Source: Candidatus Zixiibacteriota bacterium (GTDB lineage: Bacteria > Zixibacteria > MSB-5A5 > CAIYYT01). From it: a DNA stretch of 64,000 nt. The translations under genes and the position numbers were made by a program. Below, piece after piece: positions 46,701 to 64,000 of the stretch. The stretch is from contig JADYYF010000088.1 in the NCBI GenBank assembly GCA_020853795.1, positions 12,820 through 76,819 on the forward strand, written 5' to 3'. The notes under the pieces are model-generated. The model searched no databases. It was given only the letters and a program-made list of their open reading frames with translations, and was not told the DNA's origin. How positions within the stretch are numbered: the stretch's first letter is position 1; the number at the start of each line of letters is the position of its first letter.

Positions 46701-47473
46701 GTATTGCCGATGAAGATATTATTCTGGATCAGAATTGCTGAATCCTGCATGGACGACGAACGGCCCACGACATGGATAGCGGCACCGTCACCTTGCAGGG
46801 AGCGGTTATCTTCGAAGATGTTATTAATGATTTTGGGTTCAGAGAACTCGCAGTCCATGGCCGCGCCGCGCGCGAAGGCGATATTCTGCGCGATATAGTT
46901 GTTGCTGATGATGGAGCGGGAGTACTGCATGGCGATTCCTGCGCCCCAGATATCGGATTCAACCGAACCGTTCTGGTAAATGCGGCAGTTGCGAATTTGC
47001 GGCGAGGAGTACACACCTTCCAATCCCTGCATACTGATTGCGGTCGGCCAATAGCGCGTAATCGTAAAGCCGTCGACGATCGTCGATTCCGAGATGCCGT
47101 AGCCGAAATAGAACGCCGTGCCGTCGCCGTTGCCGTCGAGGAAGGTCGAGTCGGCGCCGCCACGGCTCTTGAACACGACCGAGCCAAAGGTGATAGTGAG
47201 ATACTCCTGGTACGTTCCCGGCTTGACCATTACCGTGTCAGTGGCGTTGAAATTGCGCTGGTTATAGGCAAACTGGATCGTGCGGAAGGGATTGGCCTCG
47301 GTGCCGAAATTGGCGCCGACGGCATCGGTGCCGTTGGTTGCGACCCAAAGCAGGCGCGCTTGCGCCGTTGACGAGAGCAAGACCACGACAAGCAGGACGA
47401 AGATAACGATGTTGATTCGCCGATTACGGTGCGCCAATTTGGACCTCTCCATTTTCGATATACAAAACTCCAT
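43799..47473 (-). CDS. giant secreted multidomain protein. Domains: right-handed beta-helix, two PKD domains, Ig-like domains, a dockerin-like module and a T9SS C-terminal domain.
   Basis: Signal peptide. Repeated beta-helix NNxFxxN motifs. PKD signatures (WQFSDGGTST, WEWAFGDGGTST). Dockerin-like GDCNNDGNVNEADVLPL and DADGDGAIDIADLLTIAQNW. T9SS C-terminal domain NYPNPFNPQTQISYALP...GVYFYRL. The ATG at 47452 is an alternative start. Confidence 0.7.
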   Translation of the reverse strand: MEFCISKMERSKLAHRNRRINIVIFVLLVVVLLSSTAQARLLWVATNGTDAVGANFGTEANPFRTIQFAYNQRNFNATDTVMVKPGTYQEYLTITFGSVVFKSRGGADSTFLDGNGDGTAFYFGYGISESTIVDGFTITRYWPTAISMQGLEGVYSSPQIRNCRIYQNGSVESDIWGAGIAMQYSRSIISNNYIAQNIAFARGAAMDCEFSEPKIINNIFEDNRSLQGDGAAIHVVGRSSSMQDSAILIQNNIFIGNTAVQGHGGAVFLSDYTNANLFNNLFYRDSSLIATADGGGAIYRELFAQALIYNNIFVENYGTATNCFNGDTSFVFNNAFYQNIPIDFPQINCAQGAGNLEGVNPLFVNLAGGDFRLSSNSPLIDAGRNLPYWAHFNDFAGSSRFVGAANDIGPYENCKLAVEDFTWLPLTPCVGELVDFTPAYNAYWQTSIWNFGDGDVDTFYVWDEIMSPKTFLIAGDLTISATFMCETDTVTITRPITVLAAPQAAFTASDTTICVGTTVNFSSTSLGADLTFAWQFSDGGTSTTANPSHQFNIVGANNVRLIAANGCGEDTMLLAINVIDAPAAAVSGTPLTGSAPLQVNFTGSSDYPATGWEWAFGDGGTSTQQSPTYTYLRPGIYQVDLVASNECGTGDRDIRLDYIRATGFDLRLLAVDSLTAPLQRRFTINVDTLFGPYEYGINLNASVLQTPRRGTATVQLSSSQVLANQSFTATVTMSNDLAKGAYDLQVVAVSARNAPRDTIRLQFYSNPLSIAAVTPAVLDFGLVQEDETDIDTVYVNNRLQFPQDPLLSFTVSNVLSDEPQFTPLATASTAIQPGGVFKIPVRFDPTAIGPAQGTLRIVSNDPVAETLYVSLAAQAIPEQKPPKVVATVPAAEADHVLIGSDILIDLNEPLADSTLDAGRIDVRARLAQQQITGTFTVLNDNTRLRLVPAAKLPPYDTIIVRLLGTVRDQSGNSLDGNNNNLAEGSPVDDYVFRFVTGPAVYPGDCNNDGNVNEADVLPLGVFFGQEGPARNLYGEGNGWAPKQAQEWADPRATYADADGDGAIDIADLLTIAQNWSSSHQLIAPTLTDAVDFRQYAEGFRQLRPALAALSGSESGNRMLAIVSSLAAESVLPREFTLLQNYPNPFNPQTQISYALPEGCNVRLTVHNILGQTVRILVDSYEEAGFRSVTWDGTDQFGRSVSSGVYFYRLEAGSYSEIRKMLKLQ

Positions 47474-48224
47474 CCAACGGCAGCAAATCGCCGCGCCAGT
47501 TGACTAGTTGCAGCGTACTCGGATCGATATTGAGATGCGCCAATCCGGAGCCGACAGCGGTGAATGTCACTTGCAGCAAAGTCGCGTCCGCTGAGACGCC
47601 TTGTGGCTGCTGGTTGCCCTTCAAAGTATAACCCACGGCCAGGTAGTTCTCGCGTTCAACCGCAAAGAAGATCGGGTCGCGACCGGCAAAGAGATCTCCG
47701 GCTTCGAAGGCGGCGACTGACATCATGGTGGAATCAAATTCCAGTCGAAAACTCGCGCCGAAGAGTGAGTCAACGTTATAAATCCGTACCTGGAAAGTGG
47801 CCGAGTCGGCATCGGTCATGGCGTGATAGATTGGCGTCACCTTAATCATCGGAACTTGTGGTTCAAGATCGATGATGATCTCGGTTATCTGGCCACCCAA
47901 CACATCCGCCGTGCGGCTGCCGCTGTAGAGAGCCACCTCCTCGGCATCAAAAGCTGTCATCGTGAAGACGCGGTCCTCGCCGATCGGCACTTCCAGTTCA
48001 ATCGTCGCTTCGCCGTTTACCATTTCTGCCGACTGGGTGATGGTCTCCATGTCGGCGGCTGTCACGGCCAAGACTATGCCGGTGACATTGCTACCGACAC
48101 CCAAATCCTTGGCCAAGGCTGAAACCACGACTTCCCGGGCACTAGCCGACGAGGGCAGATTTCCTGAGCAGCCGGCGACCAGGAGCGCCGCGCCACCGAG
48201 CAAGAACAGAAGAAGATTGCGCAT
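47424..48224 (-). CDS. lipoprotein with a cohesin-like C-terminal domain
   Basis: Lipobox LLVAGCSG. The C-terminal approximately 140 aa (FQVRIYNVDSLFGASFRLEFDSTMMSV...ATLLQVTFTAVGSGLAHLNI...) fit the cohesin beta-sandwich sequence pattern. It overlaps the 3' end region of the giant dockerin-bearing gene. Confidence 0.45.
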   Translation of the reverse strand: MRNLLLFLLGGAALLVAGCSGNLPSSASAREVVVSALAKDLGVGSNVTGIVLAVTAADMETITQSAEMVNGEATIELEVPIGEDRVFTMTAFDAEEVALYSGSRTADVLGGQITEIIIDLEPQVPMIKVTPIYHAMTDADSATFQVRIYNVDSLFGASFRLEFDSTMMSVAAFEAGDLFAGRDPIFFAVERENYLAVGYTLKGNQQPQGVSADATLLQVTFTAVGSGLAHLNIDPSTLQLVNWRGDLLPLDGVLYIENGEVQIGAP

Positions 48225-49342
48225 CAGAAGCTAAACCTCCCTCCGAAAGTGAACTCAGTGCCGGAGACATCGATCTCCCGGTCTTGGGCGGCGTCCTTGT
48301 TGGCTTTGCCGTCGTGGAGCAACAAGCGGGCGAAGAAGGTGTAATGCTTGTTCGGAGCCGTATACTCCAGTCCTGCGCCATAGGAATAGACATCGGACTT
48401 GCCGAAGAAGTTGGTTGAACTCGATTCGTAATCGTTGGCGGACAGCGAGCGGTAGCCGCCGGTAACCGAAGCTCGCACCGTCGGGGCCAGCAGGTAGGAT
48501 AGCGTGCCGCCGAGAACCAACTTGTTGCTGTTGGAATTCTGTTCTTCAGTGGTCAGCGAATTGCCGAACAGGATCGAGTTCTTCTGGCGAGCGATGTAGC
48601 CTAAATACGCCTGCACTCCGGCTTTACCGAACTGGTTGCGTTGGCCCAGCAGAATCGACATCACGCCACCACTCTTAAAGACTTCGCGGCTCCCGACTTT
48701 GTCCGCCAGGTAGTAGCGGTACGACAGGTCAATATCGGTGCTCGACGTTTCGGTCGCGGAGGCGGTAGCGGAGAATTGGAGGCTGAACTCGTCGCCGGGA
48801 TTGTACTTCTCGCCGTTCTCCTGATAGGTAAAACCGCCATTGAGATTGTAGCTGACCGAGGCGCCGTAGGCAAGCCAGGCATTCGCTTCGGTAGCGAAGC
48901 CCAACTGCCCGATCAGGCCGAAGCCCTGAGTCACCTGCTTGACCGGCGTGGTCAAGTAATCATCAGAGATCAACTCCGCCAGCCGCACCTCCACCGTGTC
49001 CAACTCCGAGGTTCCGGAGGGAAGCTGGAGGCCGAGCGAAGCAAACATCCGGTCGTCGGCGAATGCGCGGTAGGCGCGCAGCGTCGTACCGGAAAATGAA
49101 GTCAGGGTCGCATCGAAATCGCCGTAATCGTAGTTTGAGCGGCTGATGGCGCTATTGAAGTGGACTTCCCAATTGTCCTGCAACGGGATCATTACCATGA
49201 AGGGGAAGGCTGACTGGGTGAGGTTAGTTTCCTCGCCGCCGGCAGTCAGCTTCCAGCTTTGGTAAACAACGCGCGCTGAAATTACTTTCGACTGGCCGTA
49301 CACGATTTGAGCGGTAAGATTCGCAGTCGCAAACAGAGTCAA
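48224..49342 (-). CDS. outer-membrane beta-barrel protein
   Basis: C-terminal ...GGRFSF. Alternating hydrophobic strands. The signal peptide is probably encoded from a non-ATG start just upstream (LIPTICALTLFATANLTAQ). Confidence 0.45.
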   Translation of the reverse strand: MTLFATANLTAQIVYGQSKVISARVVYQSWKLTAGGEETNLTQSAFPFMVMIPLQDNWEVHFNSAISRSNYDYGDFDATLTSFSGTTLRAYRAFADDRMFASLGLQLPSGTSELDTVEVRLAELISDDYLTTPVKQVTQGFGLIGQLGFATEANAWLAYGASVSYNLNGGFTYQENGEKYNPGDEFSLQFSATASATETSSTDIDLSYRYYLADKVGSREVFKSGGVMSILLGQRNQFGKAGVQAYLGYIARQKNSILFGNSLTTEEQNSNSNKLVLGGTLSYLLAPTVRASVTGGYRSLSANDYESSSTNFFGKSDVYSYGAGLEYTAPNKHYTFFARLLLHDGKANKDAAQDREIDVSGTEFTFGGRFSF

Positions 49343-49380: not shown

Positions 49381-50685
49381 TCAGTTCGGCCTCCCTCGCA
49401 CAATCACGGTACCGCGGCTTTCGCGCGGCGCGACATATGGATTTTCATTTTCGGGAGCCACCCCGCGTGTCGATTCTTGCAGCCGCTGCATTACTTCGCT
49501 GCGATCGACTTGCTGCGCCGGTTGCTGTTCTTCGGTGCCGAGGCTGGTCAGTTCGACAACCTGGCTGATCGGTTTCAACTGGCCGTTATAGTCACTCAGG
49601 CCACCGAATTCCTGCAACGCTTGTTGCGCCAGACCGAAGTTCGGGTCTTCCTTGGCGGCTTCCTTGAACTCGGCCTCGGCCAGGGCATATCGTCCCTGGT
49701 CGACATATTCCAGCCCGCGCGAGTAAGCCACCAGCGCCAGCATCGATTCGGTTGCCGGTTTGGCAATCGCGTGGCGCAGTTCGGGGGTGATCTCATAGCC
49801 CATGGTCTGAATCAGATCAAGACTGAGGCGCTTCTGCATCTGGAAAAACTCATTGAGCTTCCCTTCCTGCTTCTGCGGATACTTCGCCATCCCGGGGCCG
49901 ACGTCGATAATGCCGGCGTCGATTTCCAGGCCGCTTTCGGAACGGCCGGTGAGTTTGCCGGTCACGACGCGCGCGGCACCAACCAGGCGGCCGACCCGGG
50001 GCGAGTGATACTTGTCGGAAAATTCCGTCTGGCTGAGTGCCAACTCCTTGCGCAATTGATCAAGTTCCAGCCGCTCCACCAGGCTGAGGCCTTCAACTTT
50101 TGCAAGATCGGCATAAACCAATTCGGCGATACCGCGCCCCAGAGGTTGGTATTGAGCGGGCAGCGAATCGGCGTCAAAACGAATCACCGCGACGGCGTTT
50201 GACGGGATCTTATCGGTATTGATGTTTTTCTCATTGGCCACGGCGCCGCTAACGATGGTCTTCAGATTCTGATCCTCTAACCACCGCAAGCGCTGTCGGA
50301 TCTCCGTCGCGATACGCGGGTCGTTCTTGCCGGAGACGTAAGTGCGGTACAGCGCCCGCGCCTCGTCATTCTTCCCCAGGCGCTCAAAGGTCATGCCTTG
50401 GTAAAGCGTCGTGGTGGCATCATCCGCCTTCAAACGCGCCGCCTGGTCCAGTGCGTTTTGCGCCTGCGTCAGGCTGTCGAGATTGAAGTACGCGATGCCC
50501 AGGGAACGCCAGGCTTCGGACTTGTTCGGAGAGGTTTCGGTCTCGCGCTGATAAACAGCGAGTGCCTTCTCATAATCGCCCCGCGACAGGGCGCGGGAGC
50601 CGGTACTTTGCCTGCCGGCGGCACAGCCGGCCACCAGGCCGGCCAGTGCGATCAGGACTGCCGCTTGGAGAAATCCGTTTCTCAT
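49381..50685 (-). CDS. TPR-repeat lipoprotein with a central CsgG/LpoB-like domain
   Basis: Lipobox GLVAGC. TPR-like helices flank a core AVIRFDADS...GRGIAELVYADLAKVEGLSLVERLELDQLRKELALSQTEF...VGRLVGAARVVTGKL typical of the CsgG-like fold. Confidence 0.5.
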   Translation of the reverse strand: MRNGFLQAAVLIALAGLVAGCAAGRQSTGSRALSRGDYEKALAVYQRETETSPNKSEAWRSLGIAYFNLDSLTQAQNALDQAARLKADDATTTLYQGMTFERLGKNDEARALYRTYVSGKNDPRIATEIRQRLRWLEDQNLKTIVSGAVANEKNINTDKIPSNAVAVIRFDADSLPAQYQPLGRGIAELVYADLAKVEGLSLVERLELDQLRKELALSQTEFSDKYHSPRVGRLVGAARVVTGKLTGRSESGLEIDAGIIDVGPGMAKYPQKQEGKLNEFFQMQKRLSLDLIQTMGYEITPELRHAIAKPATESMLALVAYSRGLEYVDQGRYALAEAEFKEAAKEDPNFGLAQQALQEFGGLSDYNGQLKPISQVVELTSLGTEEQQPAQQVDRSEVMQRLQESTRGVAPENENPYVAPRESRGTVIVRGRPN

Positions 50686-51692
50686 TGGGTATTCGACTTA
50701 ATCTCCAACTCTACGCGTTGCTTTTGCTCCGAGGCCAACACGAAATTCGGAGAGATTTCGAGCGCCTGGGCGAAGCACTTGTTTGCCTCTTCCAGTTTGC
50801 CCGCTTCGCGATAGGCCAGACCCTGACCGTAGAGGATCGTCGAAGCCAAACTGACGTCGGGAACGCGTCCGGATGCCTTCTTGATCGCCTCGGCCTGAAC
50901 GTTAAAGTAGGTCAAGATCGAATCGGCGACTTGGGTGATCAACTGACCGATCTTGCCTTCCTTGCCTTCGATATCCACGACTTTCTTCGGCAAACTGGTC
51001 TCGGTGTCGATGATGCGGGCAATGATCTTGACCTTATTGCCATCCATCTTCATGAAGGTACCGAAGACGAAGTTCTGCACGCCGACCAGCTTGCCAACCT
51101 GAACGCGGTTGTTCTGATCCGCCAGGTCGCTTTGAGAGAGTTTGAGTTCGTCGAAGATGTAATTGAAATTCTCGCGGGCCGGCACATAAACGACGCCGGA
51201 CTGCGTTAACGAGCTGTTGATCAACGCGGCGATCCCGACACCGGCGGTGGCATACTTCTCAGCATCCATGATCGAGCCGTTGTTGAAGTCGGAGGCAAAA
51301 ACGGTGACCGCTTTGGCCGCCTGCCCCGGTTTGAAGCCCGTATCGTTCACGAACTTGATCCAGGCGTGGCCAACCAGCTTTGGCTCTTTGTCGGGATTGA
51401 ACGCGGTGGTCGGGTCGAGCTTGACAAGCACGGCCAGGTAGTTCTGCGCCAAGTCGGGCTGTTTCGCCTGAGCAGCAGCGCGTGCCAATAGCTGGATGAT
51501 CTTGACGCTGTCGGGCGTGGTCATCCCCGGCGCGGCCAGCAGATCCTTGGCTTTCAGCACTACCTGATCAAATTGCGCGTCGTAGTAAAGGTTCTCTAAT
51601 TTCTTGAGATCGTCACTGACGGCGGCCGTAGCGTTTGCGACAAAGCAGACGGCGAGCACCAATGCGATCAGCGTCGTGGTTAGAGTCTTCAT
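50682..51692 (-). CDS. paralogous secreted TPR / CsgG-like domain protein
   Basis: Signal peptide. Core KAVTVFASDFNN...RVQVGKLVGVQNFVFGTF..GNKVKIIARIIDTETS with TPR-like ends. It overlaps the previous gene by 4 nt. Confidence 0.5.
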   Translation of the reverse strand: MKTLTTTLIALVLAVCFVANATAAVSDDLKKLENLYYDAQFDQVVLKAKDLLAAPGMTTPDSVKIIQLLARAAAQAKQPDLAQNYLAVLVKLDPTTAFNPDKEPKLVGHAWIKFVNDTGFKPGQAAKAVTVFASDFNNGSIMDAEKYATAGVGIAALINSSLTQSGVVYVPARENFNYIFDELKLSQSDLADQNNRVQVGKLVGVQNFVFGTFMKMDGNKVKIIARIIDTETSLPKKVVDIEGKEGKIGQLITQVADSILTYFNVQAEAIKKASGRVPDVSLASTILYGQGLAYREAGKLEEANKCFAQALEISPNFVLASEQKQRVELEIKSNTQ

Positions 51693-51745: not shown

Positions 51746-53728
51746 TTAGCGCTTGCGCAATGTAAACCGGACAACGTCATCCTGCCGAAGATTGACAAAC
51801 TGGGCGCGGCCACCGGTGCTGTAGTCCGGGTGCTCCACCCAGATCTTATGCGGTCCGGCCAACAGCTTGAGATTACAAGGAGTTTCTGTGTCCTCTATCT
51901 TGACGTTGTCCACAATGACTTGCGCCGCAACGCCCGGACCGTCGTTGGGTTCGCGAGCGCCGATACTCAGTTTGTATTCTTTGTTCTCCAACGAAAAGAC
52001 CTTGCTGGCTTCTGTGCCGGTCACCATCACCACATCTGTTAGCCTGCCCATATCGGTGACGATTCCGACCTCATGATTTCCTGGAGCGAGATCACCAAAT
52101 GTCACGGGTTGTCCATCATATTTTACGCCTTTTCCGTCGAAGATGACCTGAACCGGTTCGAAAATCTTGTAGTTTTCGACGGTTACGCGGATTGAACCCA
52201 GCGCCGTCGGGACTAATCCCTGTAATGTCAACGACTTGGATTCGACAGAATTGCCAATCCGAATCGTTTCGTTGACTGGTTTCATCTCTCGACCAGAAAC
52301 CTTGATTGCATAATCACCGGGGGCCAGGCCGGTGTAGTCCAGCGCTGTCCCCGTATACGCCTGACTCTGCCCGGCGAATTCAACGGTCACAGGCACAAAT
52401 GCCTGATAGTTGTTCAGAGTTAGTTTCAGACCGCCGGTAGCAGGCGTCTCCTGGAAACCGCGCCAAATTTTAATCAGCGCCGGTGGGAAACGACCCTCGG
52501 CAAAATCGAGCTTCGGGTTGGAACTGTAAAGGCCGCGCAGAAGTGTGGTTGCTTCAGTGATCTTCTGATTCATCAGCATTGCAGACGCCAGAAGTTGGAC
52601 GATTTCCTGTTGCTGCTGCGGTGACGCGCCCGATGAGTTCCGCAGATTGGTCAGCAGGGATTCAGCCAGGGGATATTGCTTGTCGGAGTAACGATCCATC
52701 GCCAGTTGCATGGAGTCGGCGAAGGTGGCTTGTGCCGGGAGCTTGCCGTCTTCCCTGCCGCTCAAGAGCATCACGCCCGCAACCACCGCTGCAACTATGA
52801 CCACGCCGATCAAGGCATACAGCCACTTGCGCGAACCGCCGGGCTTGGAGTACTCGACGGCGATCGTCTTGTCGAGGCTGGCGGTGTCGGTGCGCACAGT
52901 CTTGTCGTCGGTCCCCGTCAGCGGCAGGGCGCGGAGGGCCTGCGACATTTCGCCGGCACTCTGGTAGCGCTTCTCCGGCTTCTTCTCCAACGATTTCATT
53001 ACGATCTGCTCGAGCGGACGCGGTAAATCATTGCGGTACTGAAGAGGCGACGGCGGGTCTTTCTCCAAGTGACCGGACATGATTTCATAGTCGGTATCCG
53101 CCTCAAACGGCGTGTGCGCGGTCAAGACCTGATAAAGCGTGACGCCCACCGAATACAGGTCGCTGCGGTTGTCGATGTCTTTGCCGCGAATCTGCTCCGG
53201 TGACATGTAGAGCAGCGAGCCGGCACCGGTCCCGGTGCGGGTGAGCTTGGCGCTGCCGGCGACTTTGGCGATGCCGAAGTCGGTGATCTTGACCGTACCT
53301 GACTTGGTCAGCATGATGTTGGACGGTTTGATGTCGCGGTGAACTATCCCGTTTTGGTGGGCGTAGCCAAGCGCTGAGAGCAATTGGTCGAAGATGGGAA
53401 CGACTTCCGCCGCCGAAAGAAAGCGGCGGTCGCGCAGAACCTTGTCAAGATTCGTGCCGTCGACAAACTCCATCACGATGAAGTTGAGGCCGTCGAGTTG
53501 ATCGTAATCGTAGACGCGCACAATGTTGGGGTGCTCGAGCCGCGCCAACGCCAGCGCCTCGCGCTCGAAGTAAGCGGCCAGCATCTCATCGGAAGCGACT
53601 TGCGGATGAAGGATCTTGAGCGCGACCTGCTTCTGCAGCTTGGTGTGATACGCCAAGAAGACCGCCCCGAATCCCCCTTCGCCGAGCTTATCAATGATGT
53701 CGTATTTCCCGACGCGCTTTAAGTCCAT
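51746..53728 (-). CDS. Hanks-type Ser/Thr protein kinase with TM anchor and extracellular PEGA-domain repeats
   Basis: Kinase motifs GEGGFGAVF, VALK, HRDIKPSNIML and DFGIAK. TM segment LYALIGVVIVAAVVAGVML. PEGA-like repeats include GPHKIWVEHPDYSTGG and GDYAIKVSGREMKPV. Confidence 0.8.
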   Translation of the reverse strand: MDLKRVGKYDIIDKLGEGGFGAVFLAYHTKLQKQVALKILHPQVASDEMLAAYFEREALALARLEHPNIVRVYDYDQLDGLNFIVMEFVDGTNLDKVLRDRRFLSAAEVVPIFDQLLSALGYAHQNGIVHRDIKPSNIMLTKSGTVKITDFGIAKVAGSAKLTRTGTGAGSLLYMSPEQIRGKDIDNRSDLYSVGVTLYQVLTAHTPFEADTDYEIMSGHLEKDPPSPLQYRNDLPRPLEQIVMKSLEKKPEKRYQSAGEMSQALRALPLTGTDDKTVRTDTASLDKTIAVEYSKPGGSRKWLYALIGVVIVAAVVAGVMLLSGREDGKLPAQATFADSMQLAMDRYSDKQYPLAESLLTNLRNSSGASPQQQQEIVQLLASAMLMNQKITEATTLLRGLYSSNPKLDFAEGRFPPALIKIWRGFQETPATGGLKLTLNNYQAFVPVTVEFAGQSQAYTGTALDYTGLAPGDYAIKVSGREMKPVNETIRIGNSVESKSLTLQGLVPTALGSIRVTVENYKIFEPVQVIFDGKGVKYDGQPVTFGDLAPGNHEVGIVTDMGRLTDVVMVTGTEASKVFSLENKEYKLSIGAREPNDGPGVAAQVIVDNVKIEDTETPCNLKLLAGPHKIWVEHPDYSTGGRAQFVNLRQDDVVRFTLRKR

Positions 53729-53910
53729 TTAAGTTTTACGCTTCCAGCTACTTAGTCATTACGGGTCCAGCTTTAATTGTTATCGGCATTTTGGTGCAGG
53801 GTCAACAAAAAACCACGACCTTTCTGCGAACTTCGAGCCGTCGCAGTCCAGAAATGACTCACCCCGATCGGCTTCGACCGGGGTGGAAATTCCTAAAATT
53901 GTCGTTTGGC

Positions 53911-55938
53911 TCAGAAGGGATTGCAGGGGGGGTACGGTCCACCGCCGAAGATGTACGAGATCAGGGCGACCGCATCCGAGATGTTCACCGGCATGCTGCA
54001 GTTGGCATCACCGGCTTCGTCAACGGGGGTCGGTGCGGGGCCGCTGGCAAAGATGTACTGGATGACATAGACGGCGTCGCTGACGTTGATGGCGCCGCTG
54101 TTGTCAGCATCTCCATGCATGACCAGCACGAGCACATCGCCGGAATCGGTATCGCTGACTCCCACAACGCTGGTGGCATCGGCAGTGACGCTGACCGAAT
54201 TGACGGTCGCGGGCATCACGCCGGCCGGCGCCGTCAAATTCACGGTAACGTCGGCCTTGTCGCCCGCCGCCACGGTTACCGACGAAGGCGAGAAGGTCTG
54301 CGCCCAGCCAAGGGAATTGGTCGCGCTGACGTTATAGGTCTCATCGAGCAGGCCGGTATTCTCGATCTGGAAGAGCAGCGACGTGCCGGTATTCGAGTAG
54401 ACGCTGTCGGCGGCCGTGGCGATGACGTTGACCGCGTAGTTCGGAGCAGTGGTGTACGAGGCGCCATAAGTGTAGCTGCGGTCGTTGATCGACTGAGAGA
54501 CGTTGGTAATGACCATGATCAGCGCATCGTAGTTGCCGGCATTGGGCAGGGTGAAGGAGCCATCGCCGGTGACATTGAGCGACATCTGATTCTCGACGTA
54601 GGTGTTGGTCGGGGTCATCTTCCAGGCGAGTAAGTTGACGATCCAGGGTACCGAGTTGTCGCCGTTGAAGTCGACCGTGAAAGTGGCGGCGCCGGCCGGA
54701 ATGTTAAAACGCACGTAGTTGGAGCCGTAAGCATCGGGGAACTTGCCGGTAATGGGCGTCTGGCCGGAGGTCGGATATGTTGTGTGGGTGCGCACCAGCG
54801 GCACCTGCAGGTAATGGGAAGCCTCGACGTAGTGAAGTCCGTCACTACGGCTGCCGGTGATGAAATTCCACATGGTAAACCGCGCCACCTGCTGGTTAAT
54901 ATTCTGCCCGTAGTTGTTGGTCAGGATATTGCCGGTGCCGACATACGAGGTCGTGGTGCGCAGTTCATCCCAAATCTGCGGCATGATCGCGACGCCGAAA
55001 TTTTCCTGCAGGAAGGTCGGCCAGATGAATGCCGCATACATGTGCAGACCGGTATTAGAATTCAAGGCGTAGTCCGGGACACTAAAGAACTCCGTCATAT
55101 AGTTGTAGTTGTCGTTCACCGGATCAAAGACCACATCCTCCATCCAAGTGGAAGAAGCTTCCATGAACCAGGAGTTCTCGCCGACGTCATAGGCAAACTG
55201 CACGGCGTGGTAGTATTCGTGGGCGACAGTCACTTTGGCAGCGCCCTTCTGGTCGCCGTCGGGGTCATCATTATTCGGGAAACCGATGAAATTGCGATGA
55301 ACCGAGATATAGCTAATGGCATCGTTCCAGGCTTCAGGTCCGGCGCCTTCCGGCTGGGTGTAGCCGTAGTAGCCCATTTCTTCGGTGTAAATATCATAGC
55401 GGGCGTCGCCGCCGGCCACTCCATCCGAGGGCGGCTTGCGGTGGCCGAGGTTGGTGACCTCGGTGCGGTAAGAGCTGTCGGCGTAGGCGGCAAGCCATTC
55501 AACATAATCGGGGATGCCGTTCGCCGGGCTGGTATCGGCGGTGGGGACGGCATCCGAGCCGGTGATATTGTAGTGAATCTTAAACTCACCACCGGGAGAA
55601 TTGTAAGTGTTCGTTGCTGACGGCCGGGCCATGATCTCACGGAATTGTGCCTGCCCCTCCGGGGTAAACTGGTCCCAGTTCTGGCGGATTTCGAGGATGA
55701 TCTCGGTAGCGCACTTGGCGACTTCGATCGCGTCGGACTGAAAGTCCGCCGGCAGGGCCTGCGGTTCGCGGATCGACATCATTTCGTAGAGCATCTTTTG
55801 TTCGTAGTTTAACTCGCCGTTGGCGTAGGCATCCTCGATCAGGCGATAGGACGATTGGCGGGCGGCGGATGACGGAATCGCCGCGGCAAGCACGACGATC
55901 GCCAACAGCAGCAAGGTACGTTTTAATCCGATTTGCAT
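53911..55938 (-). CDS. secreted thermolysin-like (HExxH...E) gluzincin with a C-terminal dockerin-like tandem module
   Basis: Signal peptide. TVAHEYYHAVQFAYDVGENSWFMEASSTWMED (compare thermolysin AHELTHAV..NEAISD). C-terminal GDADNSGAINVSDAVYVIQYIFASGP...GDANCSMPVNISDAVALISYIFGGGP. The ATG at 55938 with a GGGAG RBS was chosen as the start. The track ORF starts at 55965. Confidence 0.55.
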   Translation of the reverse strand: MQIGLKRTLLLLAIVVLAAAIPSSAARQSSYRLIEDAYANGELNYEQKMLYEMMSIREPQALPADFQSDAIEVAKCATEIILEIRQNWDQFTPEGQAQFREIMARPSATNTYNSPGGEFKIHYNITGSDAVPTADTSPANGIPDYVEWLAAYADSSYRTEVTNLGHRKPPSDGVAGGDARYDIYTEEMGYYGYTQPEGAGPEAWNDAISYISVHRNFIGFPNNDDPDGDQKGAAKVTVAHEYYHAVQFAYDVGENSWFMEASSTWMEDVVFDPVNDNYNYMTEFFSVPDYALNSNTGLHMYAAFIWPTFLQENFGVAIMPQIWDELRTTTSYVGTGNILTNNYGQNINQQVARFTMWNFITGSRSDGLHYVEASHYLQVPLVRTHTTYPTSGQTPITGKFPDAYGSNYVRFNIPAGAATFTVDFNGDNSVPWIVNLLAWKMTPTNTYVENQMSLNVTGDGSFTLPNAGNYDALIMVITNVSQSINDRSYTYGASYTTAPNYAVNVIATAADSVYSNTGTSLLFQIENTGLLDETYNVSATNSLGWAQTFSPSSVTVAAGDKADVTVNLTAPAGVMPATVNSVSVTADATSVVGVSDTDSGDVLVLVMHGDADNSGAINVSDAVYVIQYIFASGPAPTPVDEAGDANCSMPVNISDAVALISYIFGGGPYPPCNPF

Positions 55939-55952
55939 GGGGTCTCCCGGGG

Positions 55953-57752
55953 TTAGTATTGGCATGGCGGCGGGCCGCCGGCAAAGATATACGAAATCAG
56001 ATGCACGGCATCACTAATGGAACCGATGCCGTCGCAGTTGACATCGGCGATGTAGCTCGGGTAGGGTGTAGCGCCGCCGGCGAAGATCCAGTTGATCAAG
56101 AAGACGGCGTCGGAGATGCTGATCTGAGTGTCGCCGTCGACATCGCCGGGACGGCGAAAATGCAGATGATACGTGAAATTGTACTCGGTGCCGAAGTGCG
56201 CGGCGACAGCGGGAATGAACGTGACGCGCAGCACATTCCGGAAATCGGCGATCCAGACCTTGGCCTTGCCTCCGGCAAGCGGCACGAGCAGCGAATCAAA
56301 GTAGTTGCCGTCGCCGTAATCCACCACATACGCCAATGTCCAAGTGGTGGCGTTCAGGCCGGTGAAGTCGAACCCGACGATGCCGTCATAGCCGTTAAGA
56401 TTTTCAAAGACGATATAATTCGAGGCATACGGCTGCGGCGGAGTCACCGAGAAATTACCCGAATCGGGGAGGTCGTAGTGATAAGCCATCACATCGACTG
56501 GTGGATAATCGGGCGCGGATTCATAGTGTGTGCCGGTGGAGCGGCTGTTGGTGTAGTAGTTCCACAGCACGAAGCGCGTAAACTCGCGTTCGAACGAGCT
56601 TCCGGCCGAGTCGATTACAGCGCCCCAGGCTACGATTGCGGAGGTCGTGCGGCATTTTGCCCACAGATCGCGCATGATGATGGCACCGAAGCGTTCCTCA
56701 AGGTACTTCGGCCACACGAACGAAGCGTAGCGATGAAAATCGCCGGCCTGTAACCCGACCTCCGGATAGTTGAAGAATTCCGGTAGGTAGTTGTAGTTGT
56801 CATTCACTTGCGGAAACGCCATCTCTTCCATCCAGGTGGACGACATCTCCATAAAGAAACTAGCTTCCGAAACATCGTAGGCGAACTGCACGGCGTGGTA
56901 GAACTCGTGGGCAATCGTGACTTTGAGCGCACCCATCACATCGCCCTCGGGATCGTCGTTCGGTGGAAATCCCGGCGAGAAGGTGCTGTGGATCACGATA
57001 TGGGAGGCGTAATCGTTCCACGATTCGGGACCAGGTGACTCGGGAGTCGTGTACCCGTAGTATGGAATTTTTTGGAAGTAGATATCGTATTGATCGCTGC
57101 CGCCCTGGCCGTTGTCGACCGGCGGTTTAAGATGCGCCAGTTGGTCGAGTTCATAGGACCAAACGGAATCGGCGAGGTTCGCGGCACGTTCGATGAAGTC
57201 GGGAATTCCGGACGAATCATTGTCGGCCGTCGGTACAGCGTGCAGGCCAGTGAGGTCGAAGAAAAGCCGGAAGTAGCCTTGCGGCGACTCGACGTAGAAT
57301 TGCGTCTGTGGTCGGGCCATAAACATCTTGGCATACGAGCCGTAAAGTTCGGGATTGGCGTTGATCACGGCAAAGGCCTCGACGAGGGCATCAGTCGCGC
57401 ACTTCGAGATGGCGGCGGATTCGCGCGAATAGCGCTGGGGAAGCGATTGCGGTTCAAGAATTGCCATTGCCCGATAGATCGTGGCCATGTCGGCACTAAT
57501 CAAGCTCGACTGCTGGTCGGCAGCGAGTTGTTGTTCGAAAAGAGATGGCGAAGTCGTCGGAGCCTCATGAGCCAGGAGTGCCGGGCTGAGCAAGGCGATG
57601 TAAAGAAGTGATAGAAGTCTGCGCAATTCAACAACCTTCAGGACAAGACGGTACGGTGACTGGCACGAAATACACTTCGACGAATGCAATATACTCCCGC
57701 CGTTGCGGTTTGTCAAGTACAGTTCCGGCAATGGCTTAAGGGTCGTTTTCAA
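55953..57752 (-). CDS. paralogous secreted gluzincin with a C-terminal dockerin-like tandem module
   Basis: TIAHEFYHAVQFAYDVSEASFFMEMSSTWMEE. C-terminal GDVDGDTQISISDAVFLINWIFAGG...VNCDGIGSISDAVHLISYIFAGGPPPCQY. The true start is probably an internal GTG near 57635, just before the signal peptide LRRLLSLLYIALLSPALLA. Confidence 0.55.
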   Translation of the reverse strand: MKTTLKPLPELYLTNRNGGSILHSSKCISCQSPYRLVLKVVELRRLLSLLYIALLSPALLAHEAPTTSPSLFEQQLAADQQSSLISADMATIYRAMAILEPQSLPQRYSRESAAISKCATDALVEAFAVINANPELYGSYAKMFMARPQTQFYVESPQGYFRLFFDLTGLHAVPTADNDSSGIPDFIERAANLADSVWSYELDQLAHLKPPVDNGQGGSDQYDIYFQKIPYYGYTTPESPGPESWNDYASHIVIHSTFSPGFPPNDDPEGDVMGALKVTIAHEFYHAVQFAYDVSEASFFMEMSSTWMEEMAFPQVNDNYNYLPEFFNYPEVGLQAGDFHRYASFVWPKYLEERFGAIIMRDLWAKCRTTSAIVAWGAVIDSAGSSFEREFTRFVLWNYYTNSRSTGTHYESAPDYPPVDVMAYHYDLPDSGNFSVTPPQPYASNYIVFENLNGYDGIVGFDFTGLNATTWTLAYVVDYGDGNYFDSLLVPLAGGKAKVWIADFRNVLRVTFIPAVAAHFGTEYNFTYHLHFRRPGDVDGDTQISISDAVFLINWIFAGGATPYPSYIADVNCDGIGSISDAVHLISYIFAGGPPPCQY

Positions 57753-57879: not shown

Positions 57880-60258
57880 TTGACTCCGCCACTGAAAAGC
57901 CTATTTTGGGGCGTGGTTCGACCGCAAGTTTATATCACGCTTTTCCTTGTGACCACCGCAACTTTGCTCTTTGAGCTCTCGCTCACACGGTTGTTCTCTG
58001 TCGTCATGTATTACCACTTTGCTTTTCTGGCAATCTCGTTGGCAATGTTCGGGTTAGGAGCGTCCGGCTTGTGGCTCTATTTTCGGCGTCGCCGCCACTC
58101 CCTGGAAAACCTGAGCCGCGACCTGACGCTGCTCACGGCTGGATTTGCGTTCACCGCAGTGATCGCAATCGTGACGGCGTTATCGCTGCCGATCTCGATC
58201 AATTACAGTTCCGGCAATGTGATTCGATTGGTGGTCGTCTATCTCGCCTGTGTTTTGCCGTTCTTCTTCTCCGGTCTTACCGTCTCGCTAATCTTGTTCC
58301 TCGGTGCGAAAGCGATATCGCGGCTGTACTTCATGGATTTGATCGGCGCTGCTACCGGCGCGCTTCTGACGGTGCCGGTGCTCAATTGGGTCGGCGCGAT
58401 AAACGGGTTGTTGATAGCCGCGGCGTTGGCTGCACTCGCCGCTTTTCTTGGCGGCGAGCAGACCCGCGGGCAGTTGCGTTGGCTTGGCAGAGCGATCGCT
58501 GCGGCGGCAATTGGGCTGGTTATCATCAATTTGACGTCACCCGTGCTCAAGGTGCGCTATTTCAAGGGTCAGGAAAAGCAGCTGGTCGAATTCCAAAAGT
58601 GGAACGCGCTGTCATGCATCACCGTGCAAGGTGTCGAAGGAGAGCAGACCGCGAAGGCGATGGACATCGACGCCGATGCGCGGACGTACATCTTGCGCGA
58701 CCCGTTCCGCCTGTTTGGTCTGGAGCTGATCAAGACGGAGATCGCGCGGCGCTGGATTTCGCATCTACCGAACGTCCTTCGACCCGACGGTGACGTCTTG
58801 ATCATCGGCCCCGGCGGCGGCATCGATGTCATCTTCAGCCTGGCTTGGGGTGCTCGATCGGTTGATGCCGTCGAGATCAATCCGATTATTACTGACGATG
58901 TGATGCGCGGTGAATATGCGGAATTTTCCGGCCGGCTGTACAGCCACCCAGCCGTGCGGGTTCACACGGCGGAAGGGCGCGCCTTCATAGCTCGAAGCAA
59001 TCAGCAGTATGATCTGATTCAACTGACGCTGGTGGATACCTGGGCGGCTACGGCGGCGGGAGCGTTCAGCCTGTCAGAGAGCTACCTCTACACGGTCGAG
59101 GCGTTCCGCGAATATCTGCGTCACCTGAATCGCGACGGGATTGTGGCGATTACCCGCTGGCTCTCCGCCAAACCGAAAGAGGGACTGCGGCTGATGGCGG
59201 TGGCGCTGGAAGCTGCCGGCACTCCCGCAGTCCAACGGGGCGGGAATATTGTGATCATCGGCAGCAATTCTCGGGCAGGCGGGGAGTCGGAGATGATGAC
59301 AATGTTGCTCAAGCGCGAGGCGTTTACGGCGGCGGAAATCGCGGCAATCGATAATCGCTTGAACGAAGTCGGCGGACGTTTTGTCTTTCGACCGGATGGC
59401 GCGGGTGATCCGGCATTCGTGCAATTGGCAAGTGCTGCCGACCGGGAGCGATTCTATGAAGGCTATGAATTCAATATTCGCCCAACCACCGACAATCAGC
59501 CCTTCTTCTTTGCCACCGCCAAGGGCACCGAGCTGGCGCAGATCATGGCGTTCGAGTACGAATCGAGAAAGAACAATCTCGGGTTGTTCAATCTGTACCT
59601 GGCCGGAGTGCTGTCGGTGATATTGGTGCTCGTATTCCTGGTGGCGCCAATTATCTTCAGCGTCGACGGTCGCAGCGTTCTGAAAGAGCCCGGGTCGCTG
59701 CGCGCGCTGGGATATTTCATCGCAATCGGGCTGGGATTCATCCTGATCGAGGTTGCGGTGATGCAGAAACTGATCCTCTATCTGGGTCATCCCATCTACT
59801 CACTGACGGTGGTGCTGAGCACAATTCTGATTTGCGCCGGCTTGGGCTCGATGGCGACAACGAATTACGTTCCGGAAACCGGGGGCAAGCGACGCCGCGT
59901 CATCTTCAGCGGAATCCTGGTCTACACTCTGGCGTTGCTCGTCGGACTCGGACCGGTGACCCAGGCCACCTTTGGCTGGCCGGACGCCGCGAGAATGACG
60001 CTGACTGTTTTGCTCCTGGCGCCGTTGGGGTTTCTGATGGGGCAGCCGTTTCCGTTGCAGTTGAAATGGGTCGAGAAGAACCACAGCAGTTTCATCCCGT
60101 GGGTGTGGAGCTTGAATGGCGCCGCGTCGGTTCTGGGCTCGGTGGCAGCGGTCGCGCTGGCGATGACGTACGGATTCAACACCGTCATCGTGATAGGAGC
60201 GGTGTGCTATTTGGCCGCGTTCGGTCTGGGAGCCACCGCAGCAATCAAACGGGGCTGA
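57880..60258 (+). CDS. polytopic membrane protein with a fused spermidine synthase-like (aminopropyltransferase fold) domain
   Basis: Six to eight N-terminal TM helices and a central SpeE-like core (DVLIIGPGGGIDVIFSLAWGARSVDAVEINPII...YDLIQLTLVD), followed by C-terminal TM helices. Confidence 0.7.
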   Translation: MTPPLKSLFWGVVRPQVYITLFLVTTATLLFELSLTRLFSVVMYYHFAFLAISLAMFGLGASGLWLYFRRRRHSLENLSRDLTLLTAGFAFTAVIAIVTALSLPISINYSSGNVIRLVVVYLACVLPFFFSGLTVSLILFLGAKAISRLYFMDLIGAATGALLTVPVLNWVGAINGLLIAAALAALAAFLGGEQTRGQLRWLGRAIAAAAIGLVIINLTSPVLKVRYFKGQEKQLVEFQKWNALSCITVQGVEGEQTAKAMDIDADARTYILRDPFRLFGLELIKTEIARRWISHLPNVLRPDGDVLIIGPGGGIDVIFSLAWGARSVDAVEINPIITDDVMRGEYAEFSGRLYSHPAVRVHTAEGRAFIARSNQQYDLIQLTLVDTWAATAAGAFSLSESYLYTVEAFREYLRHLNRDGIVAITRWLSAKPKEGLRLMAVALEAAGTPAVQRGGNIVIIGSNSRAGGESEMMTMLLKREAFTAAEIAAIDNRLNEVGGRFVFRPDGAGDPAFVQLASAADRERFYEGYEFNIRPTTDNQPFFFATAKGTELAQIMAFEYESRKNNLGLFNLYLAGVLSVILVLVFLVAPIIFSVDGRSVLKEPGSLRALGYFIAIGLGFILIEVAVMQKLILYLGHPIYSLTVVLSTILICAGLGSMATTNYVPETGGKRRRVIFSGILVYTLALLVGLGPVTQATFGWPDAARMTLTVLLLAPLGFLMGQPFPLQLKWVEKNHSSFIPWVWSLNGAASVLGSVAAVALAMTYGFNTVIVIGAVCYLAAFGLGATAAIKRG

Positions 60259-60724: not shown

Positions 60725-61039
60725 TCAAAGTCTAAATTTCTCGTGTAACCGCTTGATGGCACGCTGTTTATAAATATGAACGACCTGCTGGGTTACACCC
60801 AGGAGAGCGGCAATTTCGCGTTCAGTTTTGCCCGAAAGAATCATCATCAGAGTTTGTCGTTGTCGCTCGGAGAGACTGTGACGGATATGCCAAAGCAGTT
60901 TGTTGCGGAATTTCACGTAGCTGGCGCGTTTATCGGCAGCAGCGGCAGTCTCGTAATAGGCGGACATCTCTTGCGAGAAGCGTTCAAGGACGTCACGATC
61001 AACAATGACTTCGGCAAAAATGTGTTCGCGTTGTGCCAT
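60725..61039 (-). CDS. stand-alone sigma-70 region-4-like HTH mini-protein (about 105 aa)
   Basis: C-terminus LSERQRQTLMMILSGKTEREIAALLGVTQQVVHIYKQRAIKRLHEKF is a canonical sigma-70 r4 / ECF-type HTH. No region 2 is present. An internal ATG at MAQREHIF was chosen; the longer ORF N-terminus is low-complexity. Confidence 0.5.
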   Translation of the reverse strand: MAQREHIFAEVIVDRDVLERFSQEMSAYYETAAAADKRASYVKFRNKLLWHIRHSLSERQRQTLMMILSGKTEREIAALLGVTQQVVHIYKQRAIKRLHEKFRL

Positions 61040-61856: not shown

Positions 61857-64000
61857 TTACTTGCAGTTGGCGCACGGAGCCTGGCCACCGGCGAAGATGT
61901 AATTGATCAGATAGACAGCGTCCGAGATCGAGACGGCGTGGCTGCAGTCGGCATCGCCGGCCAGCACAGGGTTGGGCGGCGGACCGCCGGCAAAAATGTA
62001 ATTGATCAGATAGACGGCGTCGGAGATCGAGATGGCCTGGCTGCCGTCGGCATCTCCGCACACATACTCGGGACAGCCCACTTGATCGGGCGAGACGTAC
62101 TGGCAATTAAAAAACAGCGCCTTGTCGATGACCGCCTTGAGAGTCGTAGTCGTGCCGTTAAGTTGGCCGGCGAGGATGAAGACCAAGCTGAGAGTGTCAC
62201 TCGGACCGACGAGGCTCTCATGAATACCGCCGACGACGATACTGTTAAGATCACCCGGCAGCGGTGTCGACTCGAATTTGGTGACGCCGTTCATCTTGTT
62301 CCAGACGCTGTCGACCTGATACACGCGCAGCGGGACGACATACTTGCTGTCTTCCCAAACGAAACCGCCGGGAGCCGGATTGCCGTCGACGCGCAGTACT
62401 GCCAATCCGGCAAGACGATTGGAATTGGGCGGAGTGGCGGTTCCCTGCTGGTAAACCATCTGGTGGCTGTCAAAGCCGCCGCCAAGATTATCGAAGCCAT
62501 TGTCGGACGGAAGATCCCAGTCGGCGGCGAAACCGACGGTGAGGTCCTCGATCCGGCCGGCCGCGTTATGCGGCCCGAGATAGAAGTCGAAACGCGCCAG
62601 CAGGAACTCGGAATTGCCGGCGTCCTTGGCGGCATAATAGCGCACATTGAAACCAATCGTCGAGTCGCGGTTGACGCCCTTGCCGAAGGCGCGCCGGTAA
62701 GCCGGCGACCCGGTGGAATCGACAGTGAGCGCCGAGACGGCATAGAGGGAGCCATAGGGGTTGGCGGCAGTCGGCATGCCGCCGCCATGGCCATAGATCA
62801 GCCAACTCAGGGAATTGCGCGAGGTGCCGAGGATCAGAGAGGCGTCGCGCAGATAGCTCAGTCCGCCACCGCTAAAGAAAGTAAACTGATTGCCGGTGGA
62901 GTAGCAGCCGATGCGGCCGGCCTGATTGACGGCAGTACGCACCACGGCTGTGCGCAACGCAAAGTTCTGGGGCTGGAAAAAGGTCGCAAAGTTGTAAAGG
63001 TCAAAGGGGATTTGTTCGGTGATCTCGCTGTCACCGTCGCTGTAAGTGAAAGCTACAGTTGCCTGGTAAAAGCCCTCGACGATCGGCCCCGTCAGACGGA
63101 TTTCCAGCGTATCGAAATTGATGCAGCCGACAGAGACCGCGCCGTTGGGAGGATGATTCGGGAAAACCAGCCAATTGGCTCCCTGCTGGAAAGTGATGCC
63201 CCGCGTGTAATTCGCGACGGCGTTGCCGGTATTGGTCAGCACCAGAAATGTATCCAGCTGTTGTCCCGGGGCGGTGTGGAGCGGATAGCGAAATTCGGTC
63301 GGTTCAACGACGAGGTGGCTGTAAGATTCTGTCGCAAAGCAAGGATGGCTGAGGTTCATAACATCATTGAGCGTCCATGTTCCTTCGGAATAGGCGACTG
63401 CGCCCGGATCCTTGTCGAGAATGTACTGCAATCGCAACGAATCGGTGACATAGGGGGCGGCAGATGACCAGTGTTCGGAGAGGCAGGAGCCGGCAGCGCA
63501 ATTGTTGGACGCTGTAATGGTGAGGTTCACGGGCGGTCCCCAGGAGGCGCCGCCATTTTGTGAGACCTGGGCAAAGAGCTCACCGTTGGCAAAACCGGCC
63601 TGAGAACAGTCATGGTGGGGCGGAACGCTCTCGTCGTCACCGAGGAAGTAAGTGTAGGTCGCATAGAGCCGGGGCATGCCGCTGACGATGCACTCGCTTA
63701 AAGCCATCTTGGAGACGTTTTTGTTCCAAATGCCGCGCTTGCAGGCGGGTTCATCGTTATCCGCGGCGAGCACCAAAGTTCGACACTGGCTGCAGTCACT
63801 CCAATGATAGAGGCGCGCGCCCTGGTTGCCCACTTGAGCCGTGGCGGAGTCGAAGAAGGAAGTTGTCCAGACGATCTGCAGGCAGCCATCGGAGGTATAG
63901 AGCGCGTTGAGATCGGTATAGGCCCGTTCGTCATCGGCACCGGTGTAGTTGGTGATGTTGACGGCAGCCGACCAGTTCGTGCCGAGGTTGGTCGAGTACT
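61857..64000 (-). CDS. secreted Cys-rich protein with a C-terminal dockerin-like tandem module; N-terminus lies beyond the window
   Basis: Reading the minus strand upstream of the listed GTG start shows an open frame to the window edge (…YTSDGCLQIVWTTSFFDSATAQVGNQGARLYHW…). C-terminal GDADGSQAISISDAVYLINYIFAGGPPP...GDADCSHAVSISDAVYLINYIFAGGQAPCANCK. Confidence 0.55.
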   Translation of the reverse strand, partial: YSTNLGTNWSAAVNITNYTGADDERAYTDLNALYTSDGCLQIVWTTSFFDSATAQVGNQGARLYHWSDCSQCRTLVLAADNDEPACKRGIWNKNVSKMALSECIVSGMPRLYATYTYFLGDDESVPPHHDCSQAGFANGELFAQVSQNGGASWGPPVNLTITASNNCAAGSCLSEHWSSAAPYVTDSLRLQYILDKDPGAVAYSEGTWTLNDVMNLSHPCFATESYSHLVVEPTEFRYPLHTAPGQQLDTFLVLTNTGNAVANYTRGITFQQGANWLVFPNHPPNGAVSVGCINFDTLEIRLTGPIVEGFYQATVAFTYSDGDSEITEQIPFDLYNFATFFQPQNFALRTAVVRTAVNQAGRIGCYSTGNQFTFFSGGGLSYLRDASLILGTSRNSLSWLIYGHGGGMPTAANPYGSLYAVSALTVDSTGSPAYRRAFGKGVNRDSTIGFNVRYYAAKDAGNSEFLLARFDFYLGPHNAAGRIEDLTVGFAADWDLPSDNGFDNLGGGFDSHQMVYQQGTATPPNSNRLAGLAVLRVDGNPAPGGFVWEDSKYVVPLRVYQVDSVWNKMNGVTKFESTPLPGDLNSIVVGGIHESLVGPSDTLSLVFILAGQLNGTTTTLKAVIDKALFFNCQYVSPDQVGCPEYVCGDADGSQAISISDAVYLINYIFAGGPPPNPVLAGDADCSHAVSISDAVYLINYIFAGGQAPCANCK

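Follow-up and report, generated by a model that had tools for sequence, protein, structure and literature searches.

What kind of enzymes do two adjacent HExxH genes of a Candidatus Zixiibacteriota bacterium encode, and where would these enzymes act? The two genes lie on the minus strand of a stretch of 64,000 nucleotides (nt) from contig JADYYF010000088.1 (positions 12,820 to 76,819), which was analysed as a whole and is called the window below. We examined the family, active site, predicted fold, domain order and gene neighbourhood of the upstream protein (B) and the downstream protein (A), and surveyed 80 related loci, one per species. The results make it probable that A and B are a pair of secreted zinc endopeptidases, tethered to the envelope by dockerin-cohesin pairing, for extracellular protein degradation.

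Both proteins belong to the MXAN_6640 family

We compared A and B with NCBIfam and Pfam profiles. The results showed that both match NF045524 (MXAN_6640 family putative metalloprotease), with 228.4 bits for A and 217.1 bits for B (cut-off 140); the matches span positions 1-272 and 3-266, respectively, of the 290-position profile. The match delimits a catalytic domain at 54760..55578 in A (residues 121-393) and at 56490..57260 in B (residues 123-379); features are on the minus strand unless stated otherwise. Residues are counted from ATG 55938 in A and TTG 57626 in B, and the numbering of the alignment and model of A runs one higher, as the query had one extra N-terminal residue. Pfam PF19527 (DUF6055) was also matched by A (38.5 bits) and B (41.3 bits; gathering threshold 27), aligned only over profile positions 129-327 of 417, and by 33 of 49 diverse relatives.

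Homologues of A came almost all from Zixibacteria assemblies, several being labelled by NCBI as "MXAN_6640 family putative metalloprotease", "DUF6055 domain-containing protein" or "dockerin type I repeat-containing protein". B was also searched exhaustively, which at 50% identity clustering gave 16962 clusters at E <= 1e-3 (including some dockerin-only matches), 4185 at E <= 1e-10 and 611 at E <= 1e-30. Since the family already carries names (MXAN_6640; DUF6055), A and B are not a new kind of protease; the family is widespread and uncharacterised. In an Aspergillus degradome paper, DUF6055 is tied to MEROPS family M106, which is called "not properly described" (PMC11241649). Literature searches on MXAN_6640, and on Zixibacteria together with dockerin, returned nothing, and no solved structure was found for any MXAN_6640/DUF6055 member.

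Membership in other HExxH families was not supported. The initial annotation had described the proteins as unlike M4 proteases, and in Pfam at E <= 1 neither A nor B matched Peptidase_M4, M4_C, PepSY, FTP or Peptidase_M30; no M4 domain and no FTP/PepSY propeptide was thus detected. The 49 relatives likewise gave no Peptidase_M30 match at E <= 0.01. The Svx/AvrXca profile (NCBIfam NF040510) matched B in the active-site region only, at 22.3 bits (E 4.4e-5) against a cut-off of 625, and did not match A. As for toxin-type and non-peptidase HExxH families, which the initial annotation had named as the competing placement, a Pfam profile search gave no DUF4157 match for A or B, and the Tox-MPTase4 match was weak (E 0.17, 12.3 bits, cut-off 25).

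A search of plasmid-record proteins recovered only one distant homologue, an uncharacterised 318-amino-acid (aa) protein of Klebsiella aerogenes (LR134125.1; L085, 2342..3298). It is 25% identical to the catalytic domain, scores 50 bits with NF045524 (under the cut-off), has no Pfam match and adjoins hspQ/rlmI. This homologue is no bridge to a characterised enzyme.

A and B are paralogues, with 42% identity over 443 aa (E 9e-108), a likeness far beyond chance that agrees with the tandem duplication proposed in the initial annotation. Their dockerin segments are 54% identical, and no third paralogue was found within the window. The ratio of nonsynonymous to synonymous substitution rates (dN/dS), calculated against a 92%-identical locus (L006), was 0.074 (A) and 0.077 (B), values that place both genes under strong purifying selection. 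The duplication is probably old, and both copies appear to have been kept functional.

The predicted catalytic residues are invariant

The HExxH and downstream Glu motifs quoted in the initial annotation were present in both proteins (VTVAHEYYHAVQFAYDVGENSWFMEASSTWMED in A and VTIAHEFYHAVQFAYDVSEASFFMEMSSTWMEE in B), and His240, Glu241, His244, Glu260 and Glu267 stand at the same numbers in the two. The first three residues lie in HEYYH of A (55207..55221), invariant in 46/46 homologues, and in HEFYH of B (56895..56909), invariant in the 49 diverse family members. Glu260, the proposed third zinc ligand, is found in WFME of A (55159..55161) and FFME of B (56847..56849), 16 residues past His244 with 15 residues intervening, and Glu267 (TWME) follows 7 residues further on.

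In the 46 homologues, which share 33-73% identity, Glu260 and Glu267 were as invariant as HExxH. Among the 49 representatives (25-53% identity) only six columns were invariant, and four of these were His240, Glu241, His244 and Glu260; Glu267 was conserved in at least 90%. All representatives with a catalytic-domain match keep HExxH and nearly all full-length ones have a (W/F)xE...WME-like motif, the linker from the second His to (W/F)xE varying from 15 to well over 20 residues. The initial annotation had made its gluzincin call depend on a third zinc ligand in alignments, and Glu260 was present throughout both sets. His240, Glu241, His244 and Glu260 are thus, with confidence, the predicted catalytic residues.

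The AlphaFold model of A placed HExxH in a helix at model residues 230-249 and both Glu residues in the next helix at 257-271. The second His is 4 residues from the end of the first helix and Glu260 is 4 residues into the second, an antiparallel geometry as expected for a gluzincin third ligand, the role that Glu260 would have in the model. Judged from this geometry and from invariance, and by analogy with thermolysin and M1 enzymes, His240, His244 and Glu260 would bind one zinc and Glu241 would act as the general base. Glu267, which would lie on the same face of the helix, is a probable support of the first His.

A predicted thermolysin-type fold with additional domains

The model of A had a predicted local distance difference test score (pLDDT) of 92.8 and a predicted template modelling score (pTM) of 0.73, and showed the two-lobe zincin fold of thermolysin type. 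Its closest three-dimensional similarity was to M30 lugdulysin (PDB 7bb8), at 13% identity. Because the fold matches are all HExxH+Glu enzymes, the assignment of A and B to the gluzincins (clan MA(E)) is supported by the predicted fold as well as by the motif. The initial annotation had called them thermolysin-like gluzincins; the gluzincin part stands, and the likeness to thermolysin applies at the clan and fold level only, the closest structure being that of lugdulysin.

The domain order is signal peptide, helical N-terminal region, catalytic domain, PPC-like beta-sandwich, immunoglobulin (Ig)-like domain (A only) and type-I dockerin. In A the beta-sandwich (54448..54792) is similar to PPC and collagen-binding domains. 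The Ig-like domain (54124..54432), absent from B, adds about 100 residues with model strands at 504-606; Foldseek matched it to ASH/PapD/MSP-type Ig folds, and its Ig_VWA7, fn3_5 and HYDIN-like profile matches were all under cut-off.

The N-terminal region of A (55623..55875, about residues 22-105) forms four helices in the model (31-40, 46-58, 78-87 and 94-103; pLDDT > 90) that are unrelated to FTP/PepSY. Within its approximately 85 residues the motifs LP..Y(R) and (K/R)x(G/A)T are conserved, and the Arg-Pro where the region joins the catalytic domain is invariant. The region could be a pro-region or a lid. The initial annotation had stated that no PepSY or propeptide was present; the PepSY part of this statement was borne out, whereas the propeptide part was not established, because the conserved helical residues ahead of the catalytic domain could be a removable pro-segment.

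A and B each have a Cys in this N-terminal motif. The Cys (in KCAT) was considered as a cysteine switch, as (K/R)C(G/A)T recalls PRCGxPD of the matrix metalloproteases, and this was rejected as a family mechanism. Of 239 full-length relatives, 103 have Cys at position x of (K/R)x(G/A)T, 61 have Ser and 19 have Asp; in 49 the motif was not found. In the model of A the position directly precedes helix 78-87. From the Cys/Ser/Asp pattern and this placement, the residue is read as a helix N-cap and not as a zinc ligand.

Both proteins end in a type-I dockerin, and a cohesin lipoprotein is encoded nearby

The initial annotation had noted a dockerin-like C-terminal module, and this was confirmed. 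The C-termini of both proteins scored above the Pfam Dockerin_1 cut-off and have the two calcium-loop repeats and the fold of type-I dockerins. The dockerin of A lies at 53950..54117 and that of B at 55986..56150 (residues 493-547; 30.2 bits, cut-off 22.9). The A module contains a family-invariant Cys pair (Cys647 and Cys672). One Cys of the pair is in the second calcium loop (DANC / DVNC) and the other is at the C-terminal PPC motif; the two may form a disulfide. We know of no such Cys pair in clostridial type-I dockerins. A third ORF (open reading frame) upstream, at 61857..63998, shares the distinctive repeat SDAVYLINYIFAGG and the invariant Cys pair with A and B. This ORF is open at the window end, carries the same dockerin subtype and has no catalytic domain by Pfam; its syntenic counterpart in locus L001 encodes 969 aa that match nothing in Pfam, and an M1 peptidase with a dockerin lies beyond.

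About 6 kb downstream of the protease genes, a candidate docking partner is encoded at 47424..48224, a 266-aa lipoprotein with an LVAGC lipobox and a single cohesin module (25.6 bits, cut-off 24.1). PF00963 was found in 10 of 12 homologues of this protein, and its cohesin fold is unambiguous. Four genes intervene. The one nearest A (51746..53728) encodes a Ser/Thr kinase that carries a PEGA domain; the next two (50682..51692 and 49381..50685) encode TPR proteins whose CsgG-like matches are weak; the last (48224..49342) encodes a 372-aa outer-membrane-barrel-like protein that ends in Phe.

Directly past the cohesin gene, and overlapping it by about 50 nt, is the gene of a 1224-aa protein (43799..47473). 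Its beta-helix, PKD and Big_5 domains are accompanied by an internal dockerin and, at the C-terminus, by a type IX secretion sorting domain.

We then examined the C-terminal modules of the 49 representatives; 17 carried Por_Secre_tail, 19 FlgD_ig, 11 CHU_C and 12 a dockerin. Type IX secretion C-terminal domains are therefore common on the same catalytic domain elsewhere in the family, which argues for an extracellular or cell-surface location and fits such a role for A and B. Each of the two proteins would be exported by a Sec-type signal peptide.

The protease pair and the downstream cluster are conserved together

Among the surveyed loci, the B-A tandem was present in 17/17 loci with an A protein at 52% identity or above, and the kinase / CsgG-like / barrel / cohesin cluster followed in 13/13 of those with enough flanking sequence. 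The gene order from kinase to barrel was conserved in at least 13 related genomes. Three loci at about 39% identity (L030, L039 and L063) have a single protease gene and then the same cluster. The tandem pair was found in 7 of 63 more distant loci, and most of the others have a single copy without the cluster.

The taxon labels of assemblies that share the cluster are inconsistent: many of the closest are called "uncultured Ignavibacteria/Ignavibacteriales", and others Zixibacteria, Zixiibacteriota or GN15 (loci L005-L084).

Upstream of the pair, a divergent gene (57880..60258, plus strand) encodes a 792-aa polytopic membrane protein with a weak spermidine-synthase-like domain just under cut-off, and its position is conserved in L001 and L002. 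Also conserved upstream is a protein of about 104 aa with a sigma-70 region 4 / LuxR-type helix-turn-helix (60725..61039; L001, 4863..5503), followed by a 58-aa ORF. The small helix-turn-helix protein could be a dedicated regulator.

Gene starts and transcription signals

A and B are encoded head to tail, and both listed ORFs were present, at 53911..55965 (684 aa) for A and 55953..57752 (599 aa) for B. The initial annotation had reported a 13-nt overlap between them and had preferred a later start for A. The overlap is real as listed, since the A ATG at 55965 precedes the B stop codon (TAA, 55955..55953), and the preference was right: ATG 55938 lies 14 nt past that stop, with the ribosome-binding site GGGAG (55944..55948) 5 nt upstream. 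The closest homologue of A (P0001, 98% identical) is 675 aa long, the length obtained from ATG 55938, and this start yields a typical signal peptide (MQIGLKRTLLLLAIVVLAAAIPSSA). Gene A was revised to 53911..55938, encoding a 675-aa secreted MXAN_6640-family HExxH protein.

The listed ORF of B, which begins at TTG 57752, is too long by about 42 codons and has a promoter within it. This sigma-70-like promoter (TTGACA-17-TATATT, 57688..57716) matches the consensus at 11 of 12 positions; its -35 box ACTTGAC is identical in loci L001 and L003, and TATATT is identical in L001. The first start codon past the promoter, TTG 57626, has GAAGG 8 nt upstream and is, from these signals, most likely the start of B. 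The revised gene (55953..57626) encodes a 557-aa secreted protein of the same family, and orthologues were called at 554-567 aa. Signal peptides were judged by eye from sequence; that of B (57570..57626, MRRLLSLLYIALLSPALLA) has a basic n-region, a hydrophobic core and small residues at its end.

Past A lies a terminator-like hairpin (53860..53885; 11 pairs, 8 of them G-C), and between it and the kinase gene come a T-run and a TTGAC box that is conserved. The segment TTTTTTGTTGAC is conserved at this place, and L001 has a clean hairpin and T-run at the same position. With the promoter before B and the hairpin, T-run and TTGAC box past A, B and A look like a two-gene transcription unit that runs from promoter to terminator.

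Where and how the proteases would act

In the proposed mechanism, the dockerin most likely tethers each protease to the downstream cohesin lipoprotein, a putative pairing through which the enzymes would be displayed on the envelope and break down extracellular protein. Several points weigh against this conclusion. The terminator and a promoter lie between the two protease genes and the downstream cluster, and L004, a more distant complete genome, has the tandem pair without the cluster. The pairing of A and B with the cohesin is putative, as judged from the genes. An explanation based on Sec export also needs a route for the proteins across the outer membrane. Glu260 is preferred to Glu267 as the zinc ligand on conservation and helix position. 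Searches of PDB chains by sequence and by profile matched nothing but dockerins or FlgD/type IX secretion domains and thus no solved relative of the catalytic domain, and the link to M30 is structural only, at 13% identity without a Pfam Peptidase_M30 match. Finally, because our literature search found no published biochemistry for any NF045524 or DUF6055 member, we infer the metal binding and peptidase activity of A and B.

The alternative that survives best is that A and B are active secreted metalloproteases whose dockerins do not bind the local cohesin, the enzymes being free or docked to another cohesin or a non-cohesin partner. It draws on the hairpin, T-run and promoter-like box between A and the cluster, on the pair kept without the cluster in L004, and on the number of modules, with at least four dockerin-bearing proteins in the window for one cohesin module. 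However, the proteases and the cohesin cluster are linked in all 13 close loci and in the three distant single-protease loci, the cohesin fold is clear, and the lipobox provides for envelope anchoring; we consider this alternative possible, though rather unlikely.

A second alternative would make A and B specialists and not general endopeptidases: glycopeptidases or extensin/mucin-type peptidases like those of Svx/AvrXca or M60. The weak local Svx/AvrXca match of B lies at the active site, and Svx is an experimentally shown gluzincin (HExxH-x22-E) with an M60-like model (PMC9266454), but the score is far under the cut-off and the Pfam search detected no carbohydrate-binding module in A or B, making this improbable. 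Weakest of all is the idea that one or both are non-catalytic HExxH proteins, such as an adhesin or scaffold with a dead protease fold or a polymorphic-toxin-type domain: the family is called a "putative" metalloprotease family with no assays reported, Tox-MPTase4 matches weakly, and the Aspergillus degradome paper says that MEROPS M105 and M106 hold many non-peptidase homologues (PMC11241649), but none of the proposed catalytic residues varies, either between the two paralogues or among family members, selection on A and B is strongly purifying, the toxin match is far under cut-off, and a signal peptide, PPC-like domain and dockerin are the typical architecture of a secreted bacterial protease, so that we regard it as very improbable.

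Among these explanations we retain that of envelope-tethered zinc endopeptidases. A more speculative extension, which we hold to be doubtful, is that Zixibacteria have a conserved envelope module with the protease pair as its cargo, the downstream cluster (PEGA kinase, two CsgG-like/TPR proteins, barrel-like protein and single-cohesin lipoprotein) building a dedicated export and display station at which the dockerin-tagged proteases would dock. Such a module would correspond, in minimal form and in a Gram-negative setting, to a cellulosome that carries proteases, and a kinase might control it.

The analysis gives a large family (4185 clusters at E <= 1e-10) a predicted set of catalytic residues, a fold placement beside M30 and a conserved genomic tie to a cohesin lipoprotein. 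The result is a useful annotation and unsurprising, and the putative cohesin link is its most interesting lead. If the docking is true, uncultured FCB-group bacteria display proteases, not cellulases, by cohesin-dockerin pairs, which would bear on protein feeding by sediment and soil bacteria.

Comparison with known systems

With the rest of the NF045524/DUF6055 family, A and B have in common HExxH and, further on, (W/F)xE...WME; they differ in ending in a type-I dockerin where type IX secretion C-terminal domains are common elsewhere. In thermolysin (M4), 19 residues separate the second His from the Glu, which lies in a NExxSD motif, whereas A and B have 15 and are 13% identical to thermolysin. 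The M30 enzymes lugdulysin and hyicolysin (PDB 7bb8, 13% identity) were not found by the sequence searches; they are staphylococcal proteases that consist of one domain and lack the PPC-like, Ig-like and dockerin modules of A and B.

The nearest experimentally characterised relatives by sequence appear to be the Svx peptidases (Svx/AvrXca of Pectobacterium, Dickeya and Xanthomonas), through a local and weak match. These enzymes cleave azocasein, are inhibited by ethylenediaminetetraacetic acid and are inactive as Glu-to-Ala mutants (PMC9266454). The similarity, seen with B, is confined to the surroundings of the active site; Svx has an acyltransferase-like second domain and 22 residues from the second His to the Glu, and it lacks a dockerin.

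An earlier proposal, made for Cloacimonadota assemblies, combines dockerin-tagged peptidases with cohesin scaffolds (PMC8542988). As in cellulosomes and non-cellulosomal cohesin-dockerin display, the secreted enzymes described here carry a dockerin and a cohesin-fold protein is encoded nearby. They differ from cellulosomes in that the cohesin protein is a small single-cohesin lipoprotein and no multi-cohesin scaffoldin, the cargo is a protease, the dockerin has a conserved Cys pair, and the cohesin-dockerin pairing is putative.

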